Shown here in pieces: positions 3,293 through 63,133 of a stretch of DNA of 64,000 nucleotides (positions are counted from its first letter, which is position 1; every line of letters begins with the position of its first letter). The DNA comes from a virus (lineage: Duplodnaviria; Caudoviricetes): the IMG/VR virus record IMGVR_UViG_3300028887_000117, positions 2,497 to 66,496 of that record; one strand, given 5' to 3'. Under the pieces are notes generated by a model. The model made no database searches, was not told where the DNA came from, and saw only the letters and a program-made list of their open reading frames with translations. The position numbers were made by a program, and so were the translations under genes.

Positions 3293-3357
3293 CCATAATA
3301 GTATTTCCGTGAGGAAACTCACCCTCAGCCCGTTAGAGGTTAAATGGCGGGACACTT

Positions 3358-3430
3358 GCAGGTGTAGCCCAATGGCAGAGGCAGTAGTCTTAGAAGCTAC
3401 TCAGTGGAAGTTCGAGTCTTCTCACCTGTA
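3358..3430 (+). tRNA. tRNA-Leu(TAG), short variable loop
   Basis: GTAGT-CTTAGAA-GCTAC arm, 5-nt variable loop, A73. Confidence 0.85.
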
Positions 3431-3446
3431 TTCAGGAGGAATAAAT

Positions 3447-4196
3447 ATGATAGGAATTTATAAAATTACTAATAAAACTAATGGGAAAGTTTATATTGGT
3501 TAGAGTTCTAATATAGAATAGCGTTGGAAAAGACATCAACAAGTTCCTTATAATCCTAATAGTGAACAATATGAATATCCTCTTTATCGAGCAATTAGAA
3601 AATATAGTCTAAATAATTTTAATTTTGAAATTATAGAAGAATGTTCAAAAGCAGAATTAAATGATAAAGAAATATATTGGATACAATATTATGACATCTG
3701 TAGTCCAAAAAAAGGATATAACTTATCAACGGGAGGATCTGGAAATCATTTTGGAAAATTAAATTATGATACATTAAAACAAGTAATAGATTTAATTAAA
3801 AATTCTAATATAGAACTTAAAGATATTGCCAATAAGTTTAATATTTCGCTAATTTCAATCAAAGATATAAATTAGGGACATAGTTATTATAATGAAAAAG
3901 AAAAATATCCTTTAAGATAGACAAAAAATATAAAATATTATTGTCCTTTATGTGGAACAGAAGTATCTTCAGAGGGAAGAAAATGTGTTAAATGTTTTGC
4001 TTTATCTTAGAGGATAGTAGAAAGACCCAATAGAGAAGAGCTAAAATATCTTATTCGTACATTACCTTTTACTCAAATAGGCAAAAAATATGGAGTTTCT
4101 GATAATGCAATAAGAAAATGGTGTATTATAGAAAATTTACCTAAAACAAAAAAGGAAATAAATCAATATACAGAGGAAGAGTGGGAGAAAATTTAA
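3447..4196 (+). CDS. GIY-YIG homing endonuclease (5 in-frame TAG=Gln)
   Basis: AGGAGG RBS; MIGIYKITN..YIG*S, CxxC..CxxC and C-terminal HTH-like region; single open frame to TAA if TAG is read through. Confidence 0.9.
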
Positions 4197-5087: not shown

Positions 5088-5588
5088 ATGGAAAAGTTAT
5101 TTACCCGTGGTAATGGACAAAAAGTTAATTACAATCAAATGATTAAAGTAATTGCAGATTATATTAAGAAAGATTTAAAAGCAGAATATGACATTACTAT
5201 TGGTACAGATAGCCAGACACATAGTGAGTCTAAAATAGTTGAGGTAATCGCTGTACATAAAGTTGGAGACGGCGGCATCTTCTTCTACCATAGCGAATAT
5301 AGAGAGAGATTTAGAGCATTAAAGGAAAAGATAGTAGAGGAAACATCAAGAAGCCTTGAAAATGCGAATGGATTTTTAGACAATATTGAGTTACTTTTAC
5401 TTGATGAAGATATTGATATAGAAAAGTTAAACCTAAATTTCCATATCCATTGTGATATTGGACATAAAGGCAAAACAAAAGAGTTAATTAAGGAGATAAC
5501 TAACTGGGTTGAATCTTTAGGCTATGATTGCTTAATTAAGCCAGAGAGTTATACTGCTTCTGGTATTGCAAATAGATTTAGTAAGTAA
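5088..5588 (+). CDS. RNase H-like YkuK/DUF458 family protein
   Basis: IGTDSQ, EE..S, HCDIG..GKT, KPESY.AS..A motifs. Confidence 0.75.
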   Translation: MEKLFTRGNGQKVNYNQMIKVIADYIKKDLKAEYDITIGTDSQTHSESKIVEVIAVHKVGDGGIFFYHSEYRERFRALKEKIVEETSRSLENANGFLDNIELLLLDEDIDIEKLNLNFHIHCDIGHKGKTKELIKEITNWVESLGYDCLIKPESYTASGIANRFSK

Positions 5589-5602
5589 AGGAGAAATTTA
5601 GA

Positions 5603-5770
5603 ATGGTATTTTTAAGACAGATGCTTATATTGTTTCCGCTTTTTATTGCTATGAGGCTTATAGCGGAAAAGATTTCTAAAATTGATAAAGAAATAAGAGA
5701 TAGAGTAATTTATTACTTTGGAGTTATAGCCTTTTTATTGGGAGGACTATTTAAAATGATAGTGAAGTAA
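5603..5770 (+). CDS. small membrane protein
   Basis: AAGGAG RBS, 55 codons, hydrophobic. Confidence 0.5.
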   Translation: MVFLRQMLILFPLFIAMRLIAEKISKIDKEIRDRVIYYFGVIAFLLGGLFKMIVK

Positions 5771-6120: not shown

Positions 6121-6280
6121 TAACCGTTAACATTGGGTTTAAAGTTTTGCACCAGCTATATTAGATGATAGCCAACGGAGAAAACGGTATAGAAAGAAGT
6201 CAGGGGAAAACTTATTATTGACGCTAGCAGTAGCTAGTGTCATATGCACGAGTGGTGGAATGGGCAGACACAAGGGACTT

Positions 6281-7049
6281 TGGTGTGTTCTGTCATCATC
6301 AGATGACACTATTGGAAACAATAGAGAGTGCTCTAAGGGAAACCTTAGAAGTAGAAGGTTGCTAATTCGGCGAAGGCGAACACAGAACGCCGAGCAAGGA
6401 TTTTAGGTAGACGGAAGTTTTAGAGTATTTTCTATGTTTTCCTACTTATAATTGAGGTGAGGAAAATGTAGAAATATACAAAAGAATGGTTACAAGAACT
6501 TTGTGCTAGTAGTTATTCTTATGCTGAAGTCTTACGAAAAGCTGGTCGCAAAGTAAGCGGCGGCGCACAACAAACCTTAAAGAAGAAAATCGAAGAATTT
6601 GGAATTGATGTAAGTCATTTTACTGGTCAGCGTTGGCAACAATCACCAAATGCACCAGATAAAACAGGTTCAAGAGAGAAGTATTCTATTGAAGAAGTTT
6701 TTGTAAAAGATAGTCCAGTAACTCAAAAGATAATGAGAGGGTATGTAGAAAGACATAATCTTATACCTTATCGTTGTGATTGTTGTGGCTGTGATGGTCA
6801 TTGGCAAGGAGGAGAAATTTCATTAGAAATTGACCATATTGACGGAGATAATAATAATAATGAATTATCAAATCTTCGTTATTTATGTCCAAATTGTCAC
6901 GCTCTTACTGAAACTTATCGAGGAAAAAATAAGCACCTAAAATCTATGTGTAGAGACTGTACACAACCAACCTAAGTCGTTAAGATATGGTTAAGACTCA
7001 GTCCAGACTACAACACTTTTTAGTGGCTATGGCGACATAGAGTAGTAAG
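6281..7049 (+). mobile_element. group I intron in the tRNA-Leu anticodon
   Basis: U before 5' splice site, terminal G, core-like segments GCTAATTCGGCGAA / AACGCCGAGC / TGTAGAGACT / AAGACTCAGTCC, GAAA-capped peripheral hairpins. Confidence 0.85.
6466..6975 (+). CDS. intron-encoded HNH homing endonuclease (codon 2 is TAG)
   Basis: GAGGTGAGG RBS; M*KYTKEWLQELC...; CDCC..LEIDHIDG..N..L.NLRYLCPNCH. Confidence 0.88.
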
Positions 7050-7180
7050 AAAATCCCTCGGTAGAGATACCGTACGAGTTCAAGTCTCGTCTCGTGCACC
7101 AGCCGACTTGTCAATGTCGATAAACTTGGCTGACTTGTCAATGTCAATAAACTTGGTGAGTGAAGAAGCCACTCGAAAAA

Positions 7181-10224: not shown

Positions 10225-11240
10225 TTACAAAAAATACTCTAACAGTTTTAAGAGAAATAGTAAATGTTGGCGGAGAAAAGAAATATGAAATGATTAAAAT
10301 AAAAGATAATTTATATCGAATTAAAGCACTTCGAGATTTTGGCGATGTTAAAAAAGGAGATTTAGGAGGATTTATACAAAAAGAAGAAAATCTTTCTCAT
10401 TTTGGCAATTGTTGGGTATATGATAAGGCAACAATTTATGGCAATGCACATATAGGTAACAATGCTAAAGTTAAAGATGATGCGCGTGTGAGTAATTCAG
10501 CGGTAGTTGGGGGGATCGCTATTGTAAGTGAGCGAGCAGTCATTAGAGACCAAGCAGAAGTTCTAGGATGCGCCCGTGTTAGTGGTGGAGCTTGTGTTCG
10601 TAGCAGGGCTTTCGTTGGTGATAATGCAATTGTTGATAGTCTGGCAACGATTAATGAAGATGCTAAAATTGAGGGTAACGCAATAGTAACAAATAGTGCA
10701 TATGTTGGCGGTCGAGCAGTTATTACTGGTAATGCTGTAGTTAAAGATAGTCAGCGTATAGAAGGCAACGCTGTAGTTAACATTGATTTATCTAAAAATT
10801 TAAAAGAAAATATTAGGTGTCAAACAGGTCTTTGTCCTATTGGTGATTATGTTATTGCGTATAAAGAAGTTAATAATGATTTAACTAGTAATTACGATAA
10901 AAATTTTAAATATGAAGTGGGAAAATGGGTAGAGGTAGATTATGAAAATCAATTAAAAATATTTTGGGAACAGAATAGTAACTATTTAGGTCCAACACCT
11001 TCTTCTCTTGAAAAGATGATAGAAATAGATAAAATAGACCCTTGTAGTGTTGGACTTCATTTTTCTAATGCTACTTATTGGAACTCTATAATGTATGATA
11101 GAATTGATGCAAGATTTAAAAAACTACCATCTACAATGCTTATCGCAAGAATTAATCTCGACGATATAATCACTGTTCAAGCAGGTAAAATTCGTTGTAA
11201 AAGAGCCTATATAATGGATAGTTATAAAATGAATTATTGA
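10221..11240 (+). CDS. hexapeptide-repeat (left-handed beta-helix) protein with C-terminal domain
   Basis: YRIKALRDFGDVKKGDLGGFI..E.NLSH.GNCWV followed by A.V.GNA repeats. Confidence 0.8.
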   Translation: MITKNTLTVLREIVNVGGEKKYEMIKIKDNLYRIKALRDFGDVKKGDLGGFIQKEENLSHFGNCWVYDKATIYGNAHIGNNAKVKDDARVSNSAVVGGIAIVSERAVIRDQAEVLGCARVSGGACVRSRAFVGDNAIVDSLATINEDAKIEGNAIVTNSAYVGGRAVITGNAVVKDSQRIEGNAVVNIDLSKNLKENIRCQTGLCPIGDYVIAYKEVNNDLTSNYDKNFKYEVGKWVEVDYENQLKIFWEQNSNYLGPTPSSLEKMIEIDKIDPCSVGLHFSNATYWNSIMYDRIDARFKKLPSTMLIARINLDDIITVQAGKIRCKRAYIMDSYKMNY

Positions 11241-11297: not shown

Positions 11298-11846
11298 ATG
11301 TACATCTGTCCTGTATGTAATAAAGAATATCCAACTGAGGAAGCAGTAGCTAAATGCTTCCTCCAATGTTGGAAAGAGAATAACCCCGAACACAAGTCTA
11401 AGAACGCTCCACGAACTGAAGATAGAGTAGAGCGTCAATGTACGCAGGAGATAGAAGATTTTTTTAAAGGTTTAGAAGAAAGGAAATAAACTATGGAAGA
11501 AGTAAGAATTAAAACTCATTTAATTATAACCGACATTCACGAAGAATATAAAATTAAATGGTATGGAAAGATAGCTCAAATGAAACCTAAGTTTAAAAAT
11601 AATAAACTTCTTTTTGCTATTGTTGGAGGAAGAGGTCGAGTTGAACTTAACACCAACAATATGAAAGAAATAGAGGAAAGAGCAAAGCGTCTTACTTATC
11701 CTCGTGGAAGAACAGCGATAACCAAAGATAATGCCTATATTTATCTTATCGAAGAAGATAACACCGAGCAAAAGATTGGTACTGTCACTCATTATAAAAT
11801 TAAAACCTATGCGCCTATGTATGATAAGGTTGGATATAGATATTGA
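11298..11846 (+). other. two small hypothetical genes (11298..11489 Zn-finger-like; 11493..11846)
   Basis: ORFs with RBS after promoter at 11238. Confidence 0.6.
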
Positions 11847-11859
11847 AAGGAAGATTTTA

Positions 11860-12390
11860 ATGAAAGTTTTGTTCGTGATAGACGTGCAGAATGACTTTGT
11901 TACAGAACCTCTGGGTACGAAAGAAGCACAAGCTGCTATACCTAATATAGTAAATAAGATTAGAGAGTTTGATGGCTATGTGGTAGTTACAATGGATACT
12001 CATTATGATGACTATCCTAAAACTCTTGAAGGGAAGAAACTCCCTATCCCTCATTGTAAGATGGGAACTGCGGGAAGAAATTTACCAAATGATGTATGGG
12101 AAGTAATTAAGTGTAAAAAAGAATATGCTATTTACTCGAAGAATACTTTTGGAACTTTTGAATACATTAATGAATTAAATTTTATCCACAGAAATGAAGT
12201 TCCTATTCATAAAATTGAAATAGTAGGTTTCTGTACTGATATATGTGTAATATCGAACGCACTTATACTCCGTGCAGCTTTCCCTAATATTCCTATTGAA
12301 GTAGATGCAAAATGTTGTGCAGGAGTTACTCCAGAACTTCACGAAGCGGCACTTAAAGTAATGAAAAGTTGTCAGATTGATGTGATTTAA
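11860..12390 (+). CDS. isochorismatase-family cysteine hydrolase (nicotinamidase-like)
   Basis: VIDVQNDF, TMDTH, HC..GT.G, KNTF, GFCTDICVISNA motifs. Confidence 0.85.
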   Translation: MKVLFVIDVQNDFVTEPLGTKEAQAAIPNIVNKIREFDGYVVVTMDTHYDDYPKTLEGKKLPIPHCKMGTAGRNLPNDVWEVIKCKKEYAIYSKNTFGTFEYINELNFIHRNEVPIHKIEIVGFCTDICVISNALILRAAFPNIPIEVDAKCCAGVTPELHEAALKVMKSCQIDVI

Positions 12391-12539
12391 GCCTTTAAAA
12401 ACTTGACTTTTTAAAAATTTTTTGCTATAATTATTATAGTAAAAAGAAAAGAGGAGGAAGGTAATTATGATGTGGTGGAGAAATTTTAAGATTTGGCTTA
12501 AAAACTTGCTTTACAAGCTAAATCATAAGTAAGAATTAT

Positions 12540-13017
12540 TGGTCGGTTATCCCACCTTACCCATTTGAAAAAGGCGAAAGTCTTTTGCAAGCAAAGTTAA
12601 AAGGGTATCCTTTAAGAAGAGTATTACAATAAGGTTGTTGGAGGGGATTTCCAATGTACTAGTTTCTACTCTTGGGTTTCACATCGCAGGCGTGTCTTTA
12701 ATTCCTTGAAAAAGTAAAATGCACTGTATGCGTGGTCGGTTATATTACCTTATCCAAAGGTCGCAAATCTTCCTTAAAAGTTAAAAGATAAACAGTTCTG
12801 GTAGGCAATTTCGATTGCACACTTACCAGCCATTTGTGGTCGGTTATTCTACCTTACCCCACCAAAAGTTAAAAGGAATATTGAACAGAGCCTAGCACAC
12901 CTCTTCTTCGCTTGAATTAGCATAGCTAATTTGTTTCCACTTGCGCTCAATGTGTCCCACGCTAGACCAATGGGTCGGTGGTTGAAGCACCTTTTCCGTG
13001 AAAGTTAAAAAACTATC
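12540..13017 (+). ncRNA. non-coding RNA with four copies of a structured motif
   Basis: GGTCGG..ACCTT..AAAGTTAAAA repeated at 12541, 12734, 12838, 12973 with covarying stem. Confidence 0.65.
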
Positions 13018-13191
13018 TAACCTTTCGGTTTTGGAAGTCCCTCAAAGGTAAAAGAGTTTAAAACTTCCGTTTTATCTTGATTTTGAAAGTTTTGCAAGAT
13101 ACTACGAGATACAAAATTTTTATTAATTGAATTGCCCCGAAACTCTGCGGAGTGAGGGTAAAAGAGCTGGACGAGTCTGACTCTTTTTAAT

Positions 13192-13303
13192 AACTCTGAG
13201 GTAGTAAATTTCGTGAGGACTACAACCCGAGTGGACGACAAGGAATACAGGTAGCTCCTGTATTGCCTGAGAGATGTGGGAGATACTTACGCCCACCAGA
13301 GTT
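13192..13303 (+). ncRNA. candidate multi-branch structured RNA
   Basis: AACTCTG/CAGAGTT closing helix with three internal hairpins, upstream of terminator. Confidence 0.45.
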
Positions 13304-13405
13304 AAGAAAATTGAGGGGATGTTCCCCTCTTTTCTTTTATTTATTTGACTTTTTTAAAATTTTATAATATAATTATTATAGAAAAAGAAAAGGAGAGGAT
13401 AATAA

Positions 13406-13708
13406 TTGAAAGATTTTGAGAAATGGTTGGAAAGAGAAAAGAAAAATGATAGAAAGGAGTTTATTATTGGTTGGTTTGTTATACCAATAATTTTTATTAC
13501 TGTTGTAGTCTCACTTGCTATTATAATTACTAATATTCATTTTTCTAATCAAAAGAAAGATTATTATTCTCATAAAGCAATAGTAATTGATAATATAGAA
13601 TATAAAGTAGGAGATACCGAATTTATATCCGATGATAAAACAGGATTAATTATTAAGCTTCCTAATGGGGATGAAATACACACTAACAATTATAAATTTA
13701 AAAATTGA
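13406..13708 (+). CDS. single-TM hypothetical protein
   Basis: hydrophobic segment, RBS, own promoter. Confidence 0.6.
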   Translation: MKDFEKWLEREKKNDRKEFIIGWFVIPIIFITVVVSLAIIITNIHFSNQKKDYYSHKAIVIDNIEYKVGDTEFISDDKTGLIIKLPNGDEIHTNNYKFKN

Positions 13709-15623: not shown

Positions 15624-16715
15624 ATGCTTGCACTGCAAGATTTTATAATGAAGAATGAGGATTGGAAAGAAAAACTTTCTAACCCTCCTTATTCGCTTAT
15701 AATAAAAGAAAAGGATAATCTTGTCCTTTTTAAATATACTCAGGGAGTATCTGATTTTAATGAGCCTATATGTAATGAAGCGCGTGGAATAATACTTGAA
15801 AAGGGAACTTGGAAAGTAGTAAGAATAGCGTTCAATAAGTTCTTTAATCTTGGTGAAGAGCACGCGGCAGATATAGATTGGGAAACTGCGGTAGCAACTG
15901 AAAAGATGGATGGTTCGCTTATATCTTTCTATTGGTACAATGGAGAGTGGAGAGTTGCTACTAATGGTTGTATAGATGCTGAAGATGCGCCTTGTGACGG
16001 AGCATTTAAGACTTTTAAGGATTTGATAGATAGAGCATTGGAAGATAATCCTATTAACTTTAATAGCCTTAATAAAAATATAACTTATACTTTTGAACTT
16101 TGCACTCCTCATAATCAGCAGGTTGTTGAGTATAAAGATTTTAAACTTTATTTCTTGCTTGCAAGAGATAACCGTACTCTTGAAGAATATATAGATTTTA
16201 AGATTGCGTGGTTGAATGGTTTTGAAATGCCTAAGCTATATCCTATTAAGGGTAATAAGGAAGATTTTAAAAAATTTGTTGAAACTTTTGGCGATGATAA
16301 AGAAGGCATTGTTGTAAAAGACTCTGGTTTTAATAGAGTTAAGATAAAGACTGAAACTTACTTCCAACTTCACCACTGGTTGAACAATGGTAATGTAGGT
16401 AGAAAGAGAATATTTGAACTTTTAGAAACAGGAGAAGATAGCGAGTTTTTAGCTTATTTTCCAAGATATAAAGATGCTTTTAATAATATGAAGAAGGAAA
16501 TTGAAAATGCTAAATATAAGATAGAAATTGTAGAAAAGTTTGTTGCAAGATGGAAAGACAGACATCCTGACGGTACTAAGAAACAGTTTAGTGAGTTTGT
16601 TAATCTAACAACTGAGAAATATCAGTTCTATTTTTATAGAGCATATGATTATGGAAAGATTGAACCGCCAGAAGATATTAATATGCGTATGAAGTTTTAT
16701 AAAATTGAACCGTAA
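15624..16715 (+). CDS. T4 Rnl1-like RNA ligase
   Basis: EARGII, AFNKFFN, TEKMDGSLI, EGIVV, VKIKT nucleotidyltransferase motifs. Confidence 0.85.
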   Translation: MLALQDFIMKNEDWKEKLSNPPYSLIIKEKDNLVLFKYTQGVSDFNEPICNEARGIILEKGTWKVVRIAFNKFFNLGEEHAADIDWETAVATEKMDGSLISFYWYNGEWRVATNGCIDAEDAPCDGAFKTFKDLIDRALEDNPINFNSLNKNITYTFELCTPHNQQVVEYKDFKLYFLLARDNRTLEEYIDFKIAWLNGFEMPKLYPIKGNKEDFKKFVETFGDDKEGIVVKDSGFNRVKIKTETYFQLHHWLNNGNVGRKRIFELLETGEDSEFLAYFPRYKDAFNNMKKEIENAKYKIEIVEKFVARWKDRHPDGTKKQFSEFVNLTTEKYQFYFYRAYDYGKIEPPEDINMRMKFYKIEP

Positions 16716-18173: not shown

Positions 18174-19148
18174 ATGAAGATAATAAATCCAGCATTTTGG
18201 AAACAGCTTCAGGATATAAACGATACAGTAAGAGCAATAAAATCTCCACTGTTGATAGTAATGGTTGGACTCCCTGGAAGTGGGAAAAGCTTCGTTGCAA
18301 AACAGCTCGCAGAAGTTAATGATGATATATCTATTGTTTCCTCTGATGCTATAAGAGAAGAGTTCTATGGCGATGCTAATGACCAGTCTCACAATGATAA
18401 GGTCTTTCAGGTTGTCAATAAAAGAATTAAAGAAGGTCTTATAGCAGAAAAGAAAGTTATTCTTGATGCGACAAATATATCTAAAAAGAGAAGAAAGACT
18501 CTTCTTAGAGATTTAAAATATCCTAAATCAATGGCAATAGTAATGGCAGTTCCAGAATATATCTGCAAAAAGAGAGATGAAGAAAGAGACCGTCACGTAG
18601 GTCCTGATGTTATCAATAGAATGATAAAGAATTGGTGTCCTCCTCATTACACGGAAGGCTTTGATTTTATTTCTATTATTTATGATTATGACAATAGTGC
18701 TAATTTTTATAATCCTGTCCTTGCTCTTGAGAGCGCAGTACAGATAAACCACGATAACCCTCATCATTCTCTTTCAATAGGTGAACATATGCTTAAAGCA
18801 GGAGAGCTTATACAGGAAGAGTTTAAAGCAGGTTGTCCTTTCTATCTTTATGCCGCTGCTCTCCTTCATGATATAGGTAAGCCCTACGTTAAGTCTTATG
18901 GTGAAGATGGTGTAGCTCATTACTACAACCATCAGAACTACGGAAGCTATTTAGGTTTATTTTATGCAGATTATATGAAATTTAGTTTAGAGGAGGCTCT
19001 TGACTTTATCAATATAATCTACTACCATATGGAGCCGCTGTTGTCTTGGAAGAGAAGTGAGAAAGCGCACGCAAAAGCAATAGAAGAACTCGGACATCTT
19101 TATAATGATATAATGGCAGTACATTCAGTCGATATAAAAGCTCATTAA
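18174..19148 (+). CDS. polynucleotide kinase (AAA_33 P-loop) fused to HD domain
   Basis: GLPGSGKS, SSDAIR, ILDATN; HH...EH and LLHDIGK HD motif. Confidence 0.85.
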   Translation: MKIINPAFWKQLQDINDTVRAIKSPLLIVMVGLPGSGKSFVAKQLAEVNDDISIVSSDAIREEFYGDANDQSHNDKVFQVVNKRIKEGLIAEKKVILDATNISKKRRKTLLRDLKYPKSMAIVMAVPEYICKKRDEERDRHVGPDVINRMIKNWCPPHYTEGFDFISIIYDYDNSANFYNPVLALESAVQINHDNPHHSLSIGEHMLKAGELIQEEFKAGCPFYLYAAALLHDIGKPYVKSYGEDGVAHYYNHQNYGSYLGLFYADYMKFSLEEALDFINIIYYHMEPLLSWKRSEKAHAKAIEELGHLYNDIMAVHSVDIKAH

Positions 19149-21076: not shown

Positions 21077-21979
21077 ATGGTACAAAAGAAATATAAAGAT
21101 ATTGAGCGCCTCAAGGACAAGTATGCTGGAGGTTTTACAAAAGGAGAGCATATTACAATAACAGAGAAGATTGACGGCGCTAATGCGTCTATTCGTTGTG
21201 ATGAAGAGGGTAATGTTATTTGTTTCTCTCGTCGTAACGAACTGACACCTTTTAATACGCTTCAGGGTTTTTACGAGTATGTTCAAGCTTGGGATAAAAC
21301 TGGAATTGTTAATACTCTTGGAACTCGCTATATTCTTTTCGGTGAGTGGCTTTGTAAACATACTATTCGTTATCCAGAAGATAGAATGAAGCAGTTCTAT
21401 GTATTTGATGTTTGGGATACAGAGACTGAAGAGTACCTGCCGTGGGAGCGAACAAAGGTTTTTGCAGGAGCACTTGGATTTAAAACTGTTCCATTGTTCT
21501 TTGACGGAGAGTTCACGACTTGGGAAGATGTATATGCTTTTGTTGGTAAGACTGAAATGGATGCCGAGCCTTCTGGAGAAGGAATTGTAGTTAAGTCACA
21601 GGATAGACTTGATAATAAGTCAAGCAGAACTCCAGAGTATGTTAAGATTGTTGCAAAGGAGTTTTCAGAGGTTCATAAGAGCAAAGAGCATAAAGAGATT
21701 GATACTGAAGCTCTTGCGGCAAGAGAAGCTGCAAAGGCTTTGGCTATGACTATTGTAACAGAGAGAAGAGTTGTTAAGGCAATCGAAAAAATGATTGAAG
21801 ATGATATTATTCCTGTTGATTGGGACGAGCATAATCTTGGTGTTATTGCTAAGAATCTTCCTCGTGCAATTTATAATGATTGTGTAAAGGAAGAGCCAGA
21901 AACAGTAGCGCAAATTGAAGATTTTGGAAAGATTTGTGCAGGAATTTCTATGGAGATTGCAAGAGGACTTATAAAATAA
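21077..21979 (+). CDS. Rnl2-like RNA ligase family protein
   Basis: TEKIDGANAS, LFGEW, FYVFDV, EGIVVK motifs. Confidence 0.8.
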   Translation: MVQKKYKDIERLKDKYAGGFTKGEHITITEKIDGANASIRCDEEGNVICFSRRNELTPFNTLQGFYEYVQAWDKTGIVNTLGTRYILFGEWLCKHTIRYPEDRMKQFYVFDVWDTETEEYLPWERTKVFAGALGFKTVPLFFDGEFTTWEDVYAFVGKTEMDAEPSGEGIVVKSQDRLDNKSSRTPEYVKIVAKEFSEVHKSKEHKEIDTEALAAREAAKALAMTIVTERRVVKAIEKMIEDDIIPVDWDEHNLGVIAKNLPRAIYNDCVKEEPETVAQIEDFGKICAGISMEIARGLIK

Positions 21980-23969: not shown

Positions 23970-24713
23970 ATGATAGGAATTTATAAGATTACAAATAAAG
24001 TAAATGGAAAATGTTATATAGGATAGTCCATTAATATAGCAAGTCGCTGGAAACGCCATAAGAATACTGCATATAATCCAAATGATGAGTCTTATGATAA
24101 TCCTTTATATCAATCTTTTAGAAAGTATGGTATAGAAAATTTTTCATTTGAGATTTTGGAAGAATGTAGTAAAGAATTGTTAAATAGTAAAGAAAGATAT
24201 TGGATACAATATTATAATAGTTATAACAATGGCTACAATCAAACTGACGGAGGGTCAGAGAAGTTTTGGTCGGGAAAACTATCAAAAGAGTAGATTGTTG
24301 AAATATGTGAATTATTAAAAATGGGCAACTTAACTTAGCAAGAAATAGCAAATAAATATAATACATCTTAGCAAATAGTTGATTTAATAAATAGAGGTAT
24401 TTCATATGTTTTAGAAGGATATACTTATCCAATCAGAAGTTATCATAAAAAAATAGCTTATTGCATAGATTGCGGAAAAGAAATATCAAGAAATGCTACT
24501 CGGTGTTCAGTTTGTTCTTCTAAAAATAGAATGACATTTAAAATTTCAAGAGAAGAATTAAAACAATTAATTAGAACAATTCCTTTTATTTAGATAGGAA
24601 AAATGTTTAATGTTTCTGATAATGCTATTCGAAAATGGTGTATTAAATATAATTTACCCAAAACAAAAAAGGAAATAAAATCTTATTCTGATGAAGAATG
24701 GGAAAAGCTTTAA
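23970..24713 (+). CDS. GIY-YIG homing endonuclease, paralog of 3447..4196 (5 in-frame TAG; absent from ORF track)
   Basis: MIGIYKITNKVNGKCYIG*S...VSDNAIRKWC...EEWEKL; one frame to TAA. Confidence 0.9.
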
Positions 24714-26303: not shown

Positions 26304-26461
26304 CTTAAACTCCACTAAGGCTTCGGAGTATAAAGATGCCCTTGTCGACAATAATGGATAGCCTATCCAATAAGTCGTATGAAAATGAAATGGCGACTCT
26401 CGGTTCTAAGAGTATAAATAAGACGTGACCTGAGCATTGTCAATAAACTACTCGTTAATTT

Positions 26462-61725: not shown

Positions 61726-61945
61726 ACATTATCGGGCGTTCAATATGAACGCCCATTTTTTTTAGCTTATTTTACTTAACAAATTAACACGGGGGGTACA
61801 AATTCTTAACAATTTGTTCACATTTTCCGTACCCACACCCCCTAGCACAAAATTCACACCCTTTAAAATTTAGAATCAGATCTAAAACCTAATCCCTTGA
61901 CTTTCCGAAAAATTTCGAGTATAATATCTATAGGAGGTGAGGAAA

Positions 61946-63133
61946 TTGAAGTTTAAATTAGACTTTAGCATAGTCTCAGCAAAAGACCGACTTAACGCAA
62001 TCAAACAAATTGATTTATCTACTCTTACCAAAACCGAATTAGAGACCGTTACCAATTATGTTCTCTATGGTAAAGATGAAGATGGAACCTCTGTAGTAGA
62101 TAGAAAAGAAGTTTAGATTAAAAGGAAATTTAGTTCCTTTGATAAAAATAGAACAGTTAGCCTAGAGGCTTTACTTGAAAGCCCAACTTTTGACGAGAAT
62201 ATTTTCCTTAGAGAGAAAAACATTTATACAAAAGCTACCCCCAAAATTAAGGATGTTAGGGATAGAGTTGAACACATACCAGAATTTTAGCAACTTTGGG
62301 CAGTTATTGACCAAATGAAACGTACTTACGACGAAAATACAGGCAAATTAGAAAAAACCGAAGAAACCCCTACTCTTAATTAGACTCAAATTTACTATTT
62401 ACGCCATTAGCTAATTGAATAGTATAAACAATAGTATGCATTACTTGATTCGTTTTTACCGACTATGAGGGCGAAGAAGAATAGATCGGAATATCATGGA
62501 AGTATTACGGAGAAGCAAGTTAATTTTCCCATATTACCAAGAGGTTTAAAGAACTCAATTAACGATAAAGGATTTGAAGAACCATATTACGACAAGAAAC
62601 GAATTGCGGCTGCGCCGCAAAACGAGGAAGAAATTATTAATAGTGGAAAGCCTTATATTGATTTTAGGAACATAGACCATTTATATTACTTGATTTAGTA
62701 TTATTTAGATTTAGAAGATTCGGTTAGAAATTAGCCAGATAGTTTAATTAACAATTTACTTTGGACGCTTGATTTTTATATTGAGAAAGCAAACTTAAGT
62801 CCACAATAGAGATTAATAGTTGAAGGAAAAAAGCAAAGACTTTAGATTAAAGAAATAAGGGAAAGACTTAACAAAGAGTTAGGTATTGACCATAAAGATA
62901 ATTATATAAGTACAATTTGGAATAAAAGTTTAGAATTGATTAAAGAAGCAGTTGAATTGAATTATGATGAATTTTTAAGTAAAGATTATGAGAAAGCTTG
63001 GAAGAAATGTAGTAGATGTGGAAAGGTTTTATTGAGAGACCCTAGAAATTTTGTTAGAAAGAGCAAGGCAGTTGACGGTTTAACTGGAAGATGTAAACGT
63101 TGCGATCGAGAAGTAAGATAGGGAAATAAGTAA
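61946..63133 (+). CDS. 395-aa protein with C-terminal CxxC-CxxC Zn finger; 11 in-frame TAG (track splits it into 62465..62698 and 62936..63121)
   Basis: AGGAGGTGAGG RBS, TTG start, one frame with no TAA/TGA until 63131. Confidence 0.85.

Follow-up and report, generated by a model that had tools for sequence, protein, structure and literature searches.

Large phages of the gut and rumen spend kilobases of sequence on tRNAs and on orphan structured RNAs (e.g., ROOL, GOLLD, and skipping-rope). Like the small RNA module described here, skipping-rope, ROOL, and GOLLD are conserved, phage-associated structured RNAs of phages and Firmicutes that lie near tRNA genes and are orphan in function. However, their folds and sizes are unrelated to those of the module, which is much smaller and multicopy.

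Other described RNAs resemble the module in part. [quoted passage not shown] These antitoxins and pseudo-ToxI share with the module small pseudoknotted units in several copies, and phage copies can be decoys; the module differs in its ~21 invariant bases, its irregular spacing, and the lack of a recognizable toxin gene after it. Second, the abiF RNA (RF03085), the antitoxin of AbiF/Abi_2 toxins, is likewise short, conserved, and structured, and it binds AbiF directly, neutralizing the toxin (PMC12373285). It is similar to the module in neither sequence nor structure. Third, theta ribozymes are small pseudoknotted, HDV-like RNAs found beside the tRNA genes of recoded gut phages (PMC10879173), which is the habitat of the module too. 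The HDV fold is a nested double pseudoknot that comprises a 6- to 7-bp P1 (the 5' end paired with bases that follow P3), P3/L3, P1.1, and a catalytic C that comes first in J4/2 (PMC10879173); the module lacks all of these elements.

Two further groups are alike in topology. In the exoribonuclease-resistant RNAs (xrRNAs) of plant viruses and flaviviruses, a hairpin with an internal loop pairs its apical loop with downstream bases, often in tandem and upstream of an accumulating RNA, as in the module. Nevertheless, they have no conserved nucleotides in common with it and give no Rfam match, and exoribonuclease resistance of the module would be an analogy. To our knowledge, there is no bacterial example of an xrRNA. 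PreQ1-I and other H-type aptamers are built from a stem 1, a loop, a stem 2, and an A-rich third loop along stem 1, an arrangement that the module shares.

The module lies in what we call the window, the whole 64-kb stretch of DNA that was analyzed, which is part of a 66.5-kb uncultured virus record estimated to be about one third complete. The window DNA is matched by bovine gut/rumen sequencing runs and contains 28 to 29 tRNA genes, a ROOL RNA (4.3 kb upstream of the array), and RNA-repair genes. Between an isochorismatase-family gene, which ends at 12390, and a 100-amino-acid open reading frame (ORF), which starts at 13406, there is an ORF-poor transcription unit. Its parts, from 5' to 3', are a promoter, a 21-codon small ORF (sORF), four motif units, ~170 nt of unassigned RNA, a skipping-rope RNA, and a terminator. 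The unit and its surroundings are as follows:

11731-12390: isochorismatase/nicotinamidase-family gene, directly upstream of the array
12403..12431, + strand: near-consensus sigma-70-type promoter (TTGACT, 17 nt, TG-extended TATAAT; 11 of 12 matches)
12467..12532, + strand: 21-codon sORF with a strong AGGAGG ribosome-binding site, read directly and below the size limit of the ORF list
12541..12607, + strand: unit 1, 41.9 bits with the covariance model
12734..12791, + strand: unit 2, 43.6 bits, with a 21-nt insert
12838..12880, + strand: unit 3, the minimal form at 43 nt, 45.1 bits
12973..13017, + strand: unit 4, 42.9 bits
13191..13304, + strand: skipping-rope RNA (RF02924), 38.7 bits against a gathering cut-off of 36.7, E value of 2.5e-7 in a local search
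13313..13337, + strand: intrinsic terminator (13313-13329 plus a T run), which closes the transcription unit
13345-13373: second promoter, a near-identical copy of the first, after the terminator
15624-16715, 18174-19148, and 21077-21979: Rnl1-type and Rnl2-type RNA ligases and a kinase-HD (Pnk-like) protein, at most 9 kb downstream of the array

The sequence-only reading had described an ORF-free transcript behind a strong promoter and a 21-codon peptide. The promoter and the sORF are indeed present, as is a terminator, and the ORF list shows no ORF between the array and the terminator, but the 3' end of the transcript is the known skipping-rope RNA. The RF02924 match covers 13191-13304 only, and all four units fall outside that model. 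The sORF product starts with MMWW and is basic and amphipathic. Its stop codon lies 8 nt upstream of unit 1, and a terminating ribosome would therefore reach the 5' strand of the first hairpin. The sORF has no substitutions in a ~90%-identical relative (weak evidence) and was not found adjoining the motif in other phages. As for proteins, the 100-amino-acid ORF after the terminator has no Pfam or PHROG match, and the neighboring proteins have no informative one except that encoded by the upstream isochorismatase-family gene. Together with the two RNA ligases and the kinase-HD protein, this gene forms an RNA-repair neighborhood around the array.

Three window ORFs (3309-4196, 23970-24713, and 61937-63133) are open only with TAG read as an amino acid, and two of them then match GIY-YIG (homing endonuclease), which is consistent with a TAG-recoded phage. 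No tRNA with a CUA anticodon was found in the 64-kb window; the relatives L295, L297, and L308 each carry one.

Every unit contains GUCGG, then CCUUAYC, and then AAGUUAAAA. GGTCGGT occurs four times in the window against 1.3 copies expected by chance, each time within a unit (at 12541, 12734, 12838, and 12973), and each copy is followed by ACCTT and then by AAGTTAAAA (at 12594, 12778, 12866, and 13002). The four-copy array is thus where the sequence-only reading had put it, at 12540-13017. The differing inserts and distances noted by that reading are confirmed as well: the inserts of units 1 to 4 measure 30, 21, 6, and 4 nt, and the distances from one unit start to the next are 193, 104, and 135 nt. 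Moreover, Tandem Repeats Finder detected no array at the units, the pairwise identity of which is 51 to 70% of the longer unit. The units are therefore not recent duplicates, and the earlier description of a conserved structure rather than a recent duplication is also borne out by the covariation of the two helices presented below.

In the ~90%-identical relative, substitutions within units occur only at the Y position and in variable linkers; those in unit 3, for instance, are confined to the Y position and the variable linker (12857 and 12862). The spacers between units fold no better than shuffled sequences, except for a 41-nt hairpin at 12797-12837. Related strains carry a 29-nt insertion at window position 12967, just 5' of unit 4, that resembles a vestigial unit, having a GGUCGC..UUACCC word without the loop or the A-rich tract.

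Each unit is organized around two helices, S1 and S2. S1 is a hairpin in which nGU-C-GGN pairs with NCC-UU-A-Y-CN; RNAfold repeatedly pairs the two 5' GGU words with two downstream ACC/AYC words. The two short helices of S1 are separated by an invariant, asymmetric internal loop in which U-C (5' strand) faces U-U-A-Y (3' strand). An invariant single-stranded tract, AAAGUUAAAA, follows a few to ~40 nt downstream of S1, and S2 is formed by the pairing of the S1 apical loop with the bases directly 3' of this tract. Because S1 encloses the 5' half of S2, the unit is a pseudoknot. The evidence below shows that S1 and S2 together make an H-type pseudoknot, in which S2 is convincing in ~70% of units. 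The module is 43 to 75 nt long, with ~21 near-invariant nucleotides in ~45 nt; S1 and the A-rich tract may be separated by an optional insert, and the block spacings vary by 6 to 34 and 2 to 32 nt. Regarding this anatomy, the sequence-only reading had recognized the stem that we call S2 but had overlooked the conserved hairpin S1, which is what makes the pseudoknot.

Support for S1 comes from covariation. When 16 units of six phage contigs are aligned, 97.9% of the S1 cells are paired, and the value is 99.4% for 29 units aligned to the covariance model, a model-fitted alignment that favors pairing. Both sides have changed at three of the six pairs, and at no pair has one side changed alone. 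At the outer pair, G-C is replaced by A-U, or by C-G as seen by eye in L175 and in unit b of L297. In the inner helix, one pair has C-G in place of G-C, and its neighbor has A-U or G-C in place of U-A. None of 500 shuffles reached the observed score, and slid registers drop to 34 to 62% paired. Also, a scan for the C-G flipped form yielded a further independent member, L308, in which the neighboring pair has changed too.

S2 is supported by energetics. Across 23 representative units, the duplex of the apical loop with the unit's own tail has a mean energy of -4.33 kcal/mol, compared to -2.14 ± 0.40 kcal/mol with permuted tails, and none of 20,000 tail permutations was as low as the own-tail mean. 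The sister units of L175 and L297 show a compensatory change in S2, and 19 of 164 S2 pairs are G-U. A strand test gave -4.35 kcal/mol for the + strand and -3.88 kcal/mol for the other (p 0.09), which weakly favors the + strand. A convincing S2 partner is absent in about 7 of the 23 units, including short-loop units with a GGUG/CACC stem (e.g., L007 and the first unit of L301).

Within the window, the covarying stem claimed by the sequence-only reading is upheld in units 1, 3, and 4, whereas unit 2 has a weak version of it. In unit 1, the outer and inner helices of S1 pair 12541-12547 with 12554-12562, and S2 pairs 12548-12552 with 12603-12607 at -4.5 kcal/mol, with 1 of 31 foreign tails as good. 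An optional hairpin insert with a GAAA loop (12563-12592) precedes the invariant A-rich tract of this unit (12593-12602); the insert is absent from a strain variant seen in an RNA library. S2 in unit 2 amounts to four A-U pairs, or seven pairs with one mismatch. Unit 3 has a 6-bp S2 for which no foreign tail is as good. Unit 4 has an inner S1 helix lengthened to GGUG/CACC, and a U replaces the A of its internal loop. An alternative fold, in which the strand after S1 forms a hairpin with the 3' flank, suits units 1 and 2 along with a few more; it was rejected as a general fold, given that it fails in units 3 and 4, L005, L010b, and L273.

The module is a real RNA family of a previously uncatalogued kind, as evidenced by the recurrence of its fold, with compensating mutations, in about ten other large gut phages. 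The sequence-only reading had found no known label for it, and none emerged from Rfam 15: no family matches the units, whether in the whole window at the gathering cut-off or in 12380-13400 at an E value of ≤10. A literature search for the conserved words returned only Cas9 guide scaffolds; a catalogue of 10,006 candidate phage RNAs (PMC10690425) lay outside this comparison. The 9-mer AAGUUAAAA and the GG-loop-CC-UUAUC word do occur in the Streptococcus pyogenes Cas9 guide scaffold. There, however, their order is permuted, and the module is missing the rest of the anti-repeat, has no colinear nexus or terminal hairpins, and gives no Rfam match. Considering the permuted order and the lack of any further match, the likeness is treated as a coincidence.

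Two more identities were rejected. A theta or HDV-like ribozyme would need a catalytic C, which the module does not have, given that the strand before the 3' half of its pseudoknot is C-free in 30 of 32 units; also, no complement of the 5' GGUCGGU follows the hairpin, which leaves no long P1, and no HDV-type Rfam family matches at an E value of ≤10. A preQ1-I riboswitch is contradicted by the absence of an RF00522 match at an E value of ≤10, by the lack of a downstream gene or of a ribosome-binding site in stem 2, and by different invariant bases.

The distribution of the module was established with exact-pattern scans and a covariance model (R1), with which true units score 27 to 50 bits against a window background of ≤17 bits. 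The search of viral contigs with this model and the patterns placed the module in about ten lineages of uncultured 90- to 180-kb gut/rumen phages, at one to five copies per genome as counted in whole phage records:

Window: four units; rumen phage
G001-type contigs: one unit; human gut, 135 to 163 kb
G002: one unit
G003: four units
G004 and its relative L297: five units, back to back
G006 type: one unit, 7 nt after a tRNA
G007: two units
L295: two units
L301: three units, abutting tRNA-Leu; 153-kb phage-like contig binned with a rabbit-gut Clostridia metagenome-assembled genome (MAG)
L308: one unit

L175 has five units, and in both L175 and L297, the units adjoin without spacers. The carriers are diverse rather than one clade, as the window Rnl2 protein is 67% identical in G002, 49% identical in G004, and absent from three other carriers. 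All convincing instances lie in tRNA/noncoding RNA (ncRNA) islands, beside tRNA genes on the same strand, and several carriers have a CUA-anticodon (TAG-suppressor) tRNA.

Pattern matches without tRNAs are of another kind. Those in L257, L283, L286, L300, L303, and L304 are located within long ORFs and were judged to be chance matches, and those in L285, L288, L292, L293, L299, and L302 are not among the convincing instances. Partial patterns (GGTCGGT..ACCTTAYCC or CCTTAYCC..AAGTTAAAA alone) gave mostly chance matches in coding DNA of viral contigs and were dropped. In a pattern scan of bacteria and archaea, with one genome for each of 185,579 species, the sole convincing match was the phage-like contig L301; of the others, three were inside long ORFs and one was at a contig end (L302). 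A model search of 150 other Clostridia genomes, in which only a fraction of the candidates was scored, found no unit, and BLAST searches of the window, L242, and L175 arrays against deposited phage genomes returned no match or only a tRNA. The motif hence seems restricted to phages. No gene consistently co-occurs with it, the neighbors being unrelated or without known identity.

Rumen metatranscriptomes suggest that the array is expressed: the region 12593-13035 is covered by contigs of three bovine metatranscriptome runs, which come from two studies, although DNA carry-over is possible and the contigs do not show ends, strand, or level. Contigs of one run also cover the skipping-rope part. 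One RNA-library contig, 452 nt long and at a depth of 67, has adapter sequence at both sides. The same contigs lack cover at 12450-12590 and 13045-13122, which carries no weight either way. That the array is transcribed and structured, as the sequence-only reading supposed, thus has support from this cover, within the limits of possible carry-over, and from the covariation and permutation results for the two helices.

Our best guess, to which we assign a probability of roughly 35%, is that the module is a trans-acting, multicopy RNA that binds a protein as a decoy. The sequence-only reading had likewise proposed a multivalent protein sponge, e.g., an anti-defense RNA, and a multivalent protein-binding role of this sort would be in keeping with our guess. 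In an H-type pseudoknot, the third loop lies along stem 1, and the invariant A-rich tract must then pass the invariant internal loop; it would run along the groove of S1, and tract and loop probably form one composite surface. This surface may be a protein binding site, the likeliest partner being a protein of the host, either an RNA-binding enzyme or an immune effector. One to five copies would be made per phage transcript and, once released from tRNA/ncRNA precursors, would act in trans. The variable copy number, the back-to-back units, the absence of a following ORF, the dispensable S2, and the restriction to phages all favor a decoy, and an S2 that some units can do without is easier to reconcile with a bipartite protein site than with a catalytic core.

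Other observations count against a decoy. No consistent gene is seen among the neighbors, and the bacterial genomes searched yielded no RNA with the motif that could be mimicked. Also, ~21 near-invariant nucleotides in ~45 nt are commoner in ribozymes and aptamers than in most protein sites. A lone unit is found in several phages at the extreme 5' end of a longer ncRNA or directly before or after a tRNA, a placement that suits a cis-acting role equally well.

Such a role is the first alternative to consider, and we regard it as unlikely yet worth serious attention. The pseudoknot would mark or protect the 5' side of downstream stable RNAs, either by stalling a 5'-to-3' exoribonuclease (e.g., RNase J1) as the small viral xrRNAs do or by guiding an endonuclease to cut within the A-rich tract. 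Indeed, the units always precede a stable RNA in the same orientation, and a terminator never follows at once. The first unit is ~5 to 50 nt from the likely transcript start in L301, L005, L007, and L308, and units lie 7 nt after a tRNA in L273 and against the next tRNA in L301. By analogy, the topology (internal-loop hairpin, apical loop-to-3' strand pairing, and tandem occurrence) is that of the small plant-virus xrRNAs. Nevertheless, no Rfam xrRNA family matches, RNase P removes tRNA leaders anyway and makes protection needless there, and the five back-to-back units of L175 have nothing between them to protect. Moreover, S2, without which no ring could form, is missing in ~30% of units.

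A broader proposal, which we hold to be improbable, is that the module represents either a new class of self-cleaving ribozyme or the first exoribonuclease-resistant knot from a bacterial virus, which would cut out or protect the RNAs of tRNA/ncRNA operons in large recoded gut phages. The internal loop and the A-rich tract would then be the active or blocking core.

The ribozyme on its own, a new small self-cleaving class that would cut the tRNA/ncRNA precursors of phages and have its active site in the internal loop and A-rich tract, is a still more doubtful prospect. The module looks the part, being small, with ~21 near-invariant nucleotides on variable helices, an optional hairpin insert, tandem copies, and no ORF association. 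It shares the tRNA arrays of TAG-recoded gut phages with the theta (HDV-like) ribozymes (PMC10879173), and one contig with two units (L278) also has a RAGATH-18 RNA and a group I intron. Yet no known ribozyme family matches, S2 is absent in ~30% of units, and variable spacers separate some units from neighboring RNAs, and hence no fixed cleavage product is evident. Also, skipping-rope RNA, which is cotranscribed with the array, has been reported as not self-cleaving (PMC5737381), and a ribozyme-like appearance is thus no predictor of catalysis.

A small-molecule aptamer, whether a riboswitch-like sensor or a ligand sponge built like the preQ1-I or SAM-II pseudoknots, is very unlikely. Pseudoknots of these types have an A-rich third loop in the groove of stem 1, and tandem aptamers are known; the H-type pseudoknot, A-rich loop 3, and invariant loop nucleotides of the module resemble them by analogy. 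Against this reading, the units have neither an expression platform nor a downstream ORF, another RNA stands between them and the terminator, and S2 is dispensable in some units. Riboswitch families, too, give no match at an E value of ≤10.

We give slightly less credence again to a special case of the decoy, in which the module would mimic a type III antitoxin (ToxI, CptI, or TenpI) or another host RNA antitoxin. A phage mimic of this kind would not be expected to carry a toxin gene. Several pseudoknot units do occur in one phage, there is precedent in the pseudo-ToxI of phages, and gut Clostridia have CptIN systems (PMC3401426). The likeness to type III antitoxins drawn by the sequence-only reading does not survive closer comparison, however: the units are pseudoknotted, as these antitoxins are, but they lack the near-identical, head-to-tail arrangement, are followed by no recognizable toxin gene, and match no antitoxin family of Rfam. 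Nor was a bacterial locus with the motif found, by pattern in 185,579 species or by model in 150 Clostridia genomes, where few candidates were scored. A search for ToxN (PF13958) in five carrier phages gave no match, but control genomes gave none either.

The other host antitoxin to consider is the abiF RNA. In L278, a 38-kb rumen phage fragment, two units at 11081-11198 have an abiF RNA directly 3' (11038-11074, - strand), matched at 46.1 bits against a cut-off of 37. No Abi_2 gene (PF07751) is found in L278 or in the carrier phages searched, and the abiF RNA of L278 is thus an orphan antitoxin-type RNA. It may be a phage counter to AbiF systems, and its position beside the units is circumstantial support for the decoy that we favor and for an anti-defense role, besides favoring an antitoxin mimic. 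In the window region, abiF RNA has no match at an E value of ≤10, and a search of five carrier phage records (the window and four others) gave no match, nor did the controls. The RAGATH-18 RNA and group I intron of L278 lie on the minus strand, at 4027-4087 and 5420-5732.

Finally, repeats that act at the DNA level, as protein-binding iterons or recombination sites, can be set aside with near certainty, as can a chance pattern. The three short conserved blocks might conceivably be sites on DNA, and the S2 strand test favors the + strand only weakly. However, block spacing varies (6 to 34 and 2 to 32 nt), both-side changes preserve two helices, and 19 of 164 S2 pairs are G-U. The array also lies between a promoter and a terminator, is on the strand of the tRNAs, and is covered by RNA-library contigs, and the conserved words are far more numerous than chance predicts.

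The module is strongly constrained (~21 invariant bases and two covarying helices), multicopy, and seemingly restricted to phages, and at a minimum of 43 nt, it is small enough for synthesis, probing, crystallization, and pull-down. If titration of a host protein is the true function, it would add an RNA-based tool for take-over or counter-defense in phages of Clostridia; if it is catalytic or nuclease resistant, it would be a new functional class of RNA in bacteria. Either way, it provides a covariance-model seed for annotating these phages.

Two other repeated elements were seen in the course of the analysis. In several carriers, a covarying inverted repeat (AAGACAnn..ACAGC, 30 to 60 AT-rich nt, ..TGTCTTG) precedes each RNA gene, namely, at 6270-6470 and 6830-6890 in L005, 1060-1150 (-) in L007, 6560-6680 and 6940-7020 (-) in L175, and 2390-2620 in L308. 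This repeat may be a hairpin that bears a promoter, or else a signal for processing, and is absent near the window array. In the window itself, H-type pseudoknots of a second, very small kind, with an AUAAA(C) linker, are found directly after tRNA 3' ends (7102-7160 and 26305-26450). Their stems and loop-to-3' pairing hold by eye for the copies at 7102, 7128, and 26309, and their topology is the same as that of the four-unit module, with different conserved bases.
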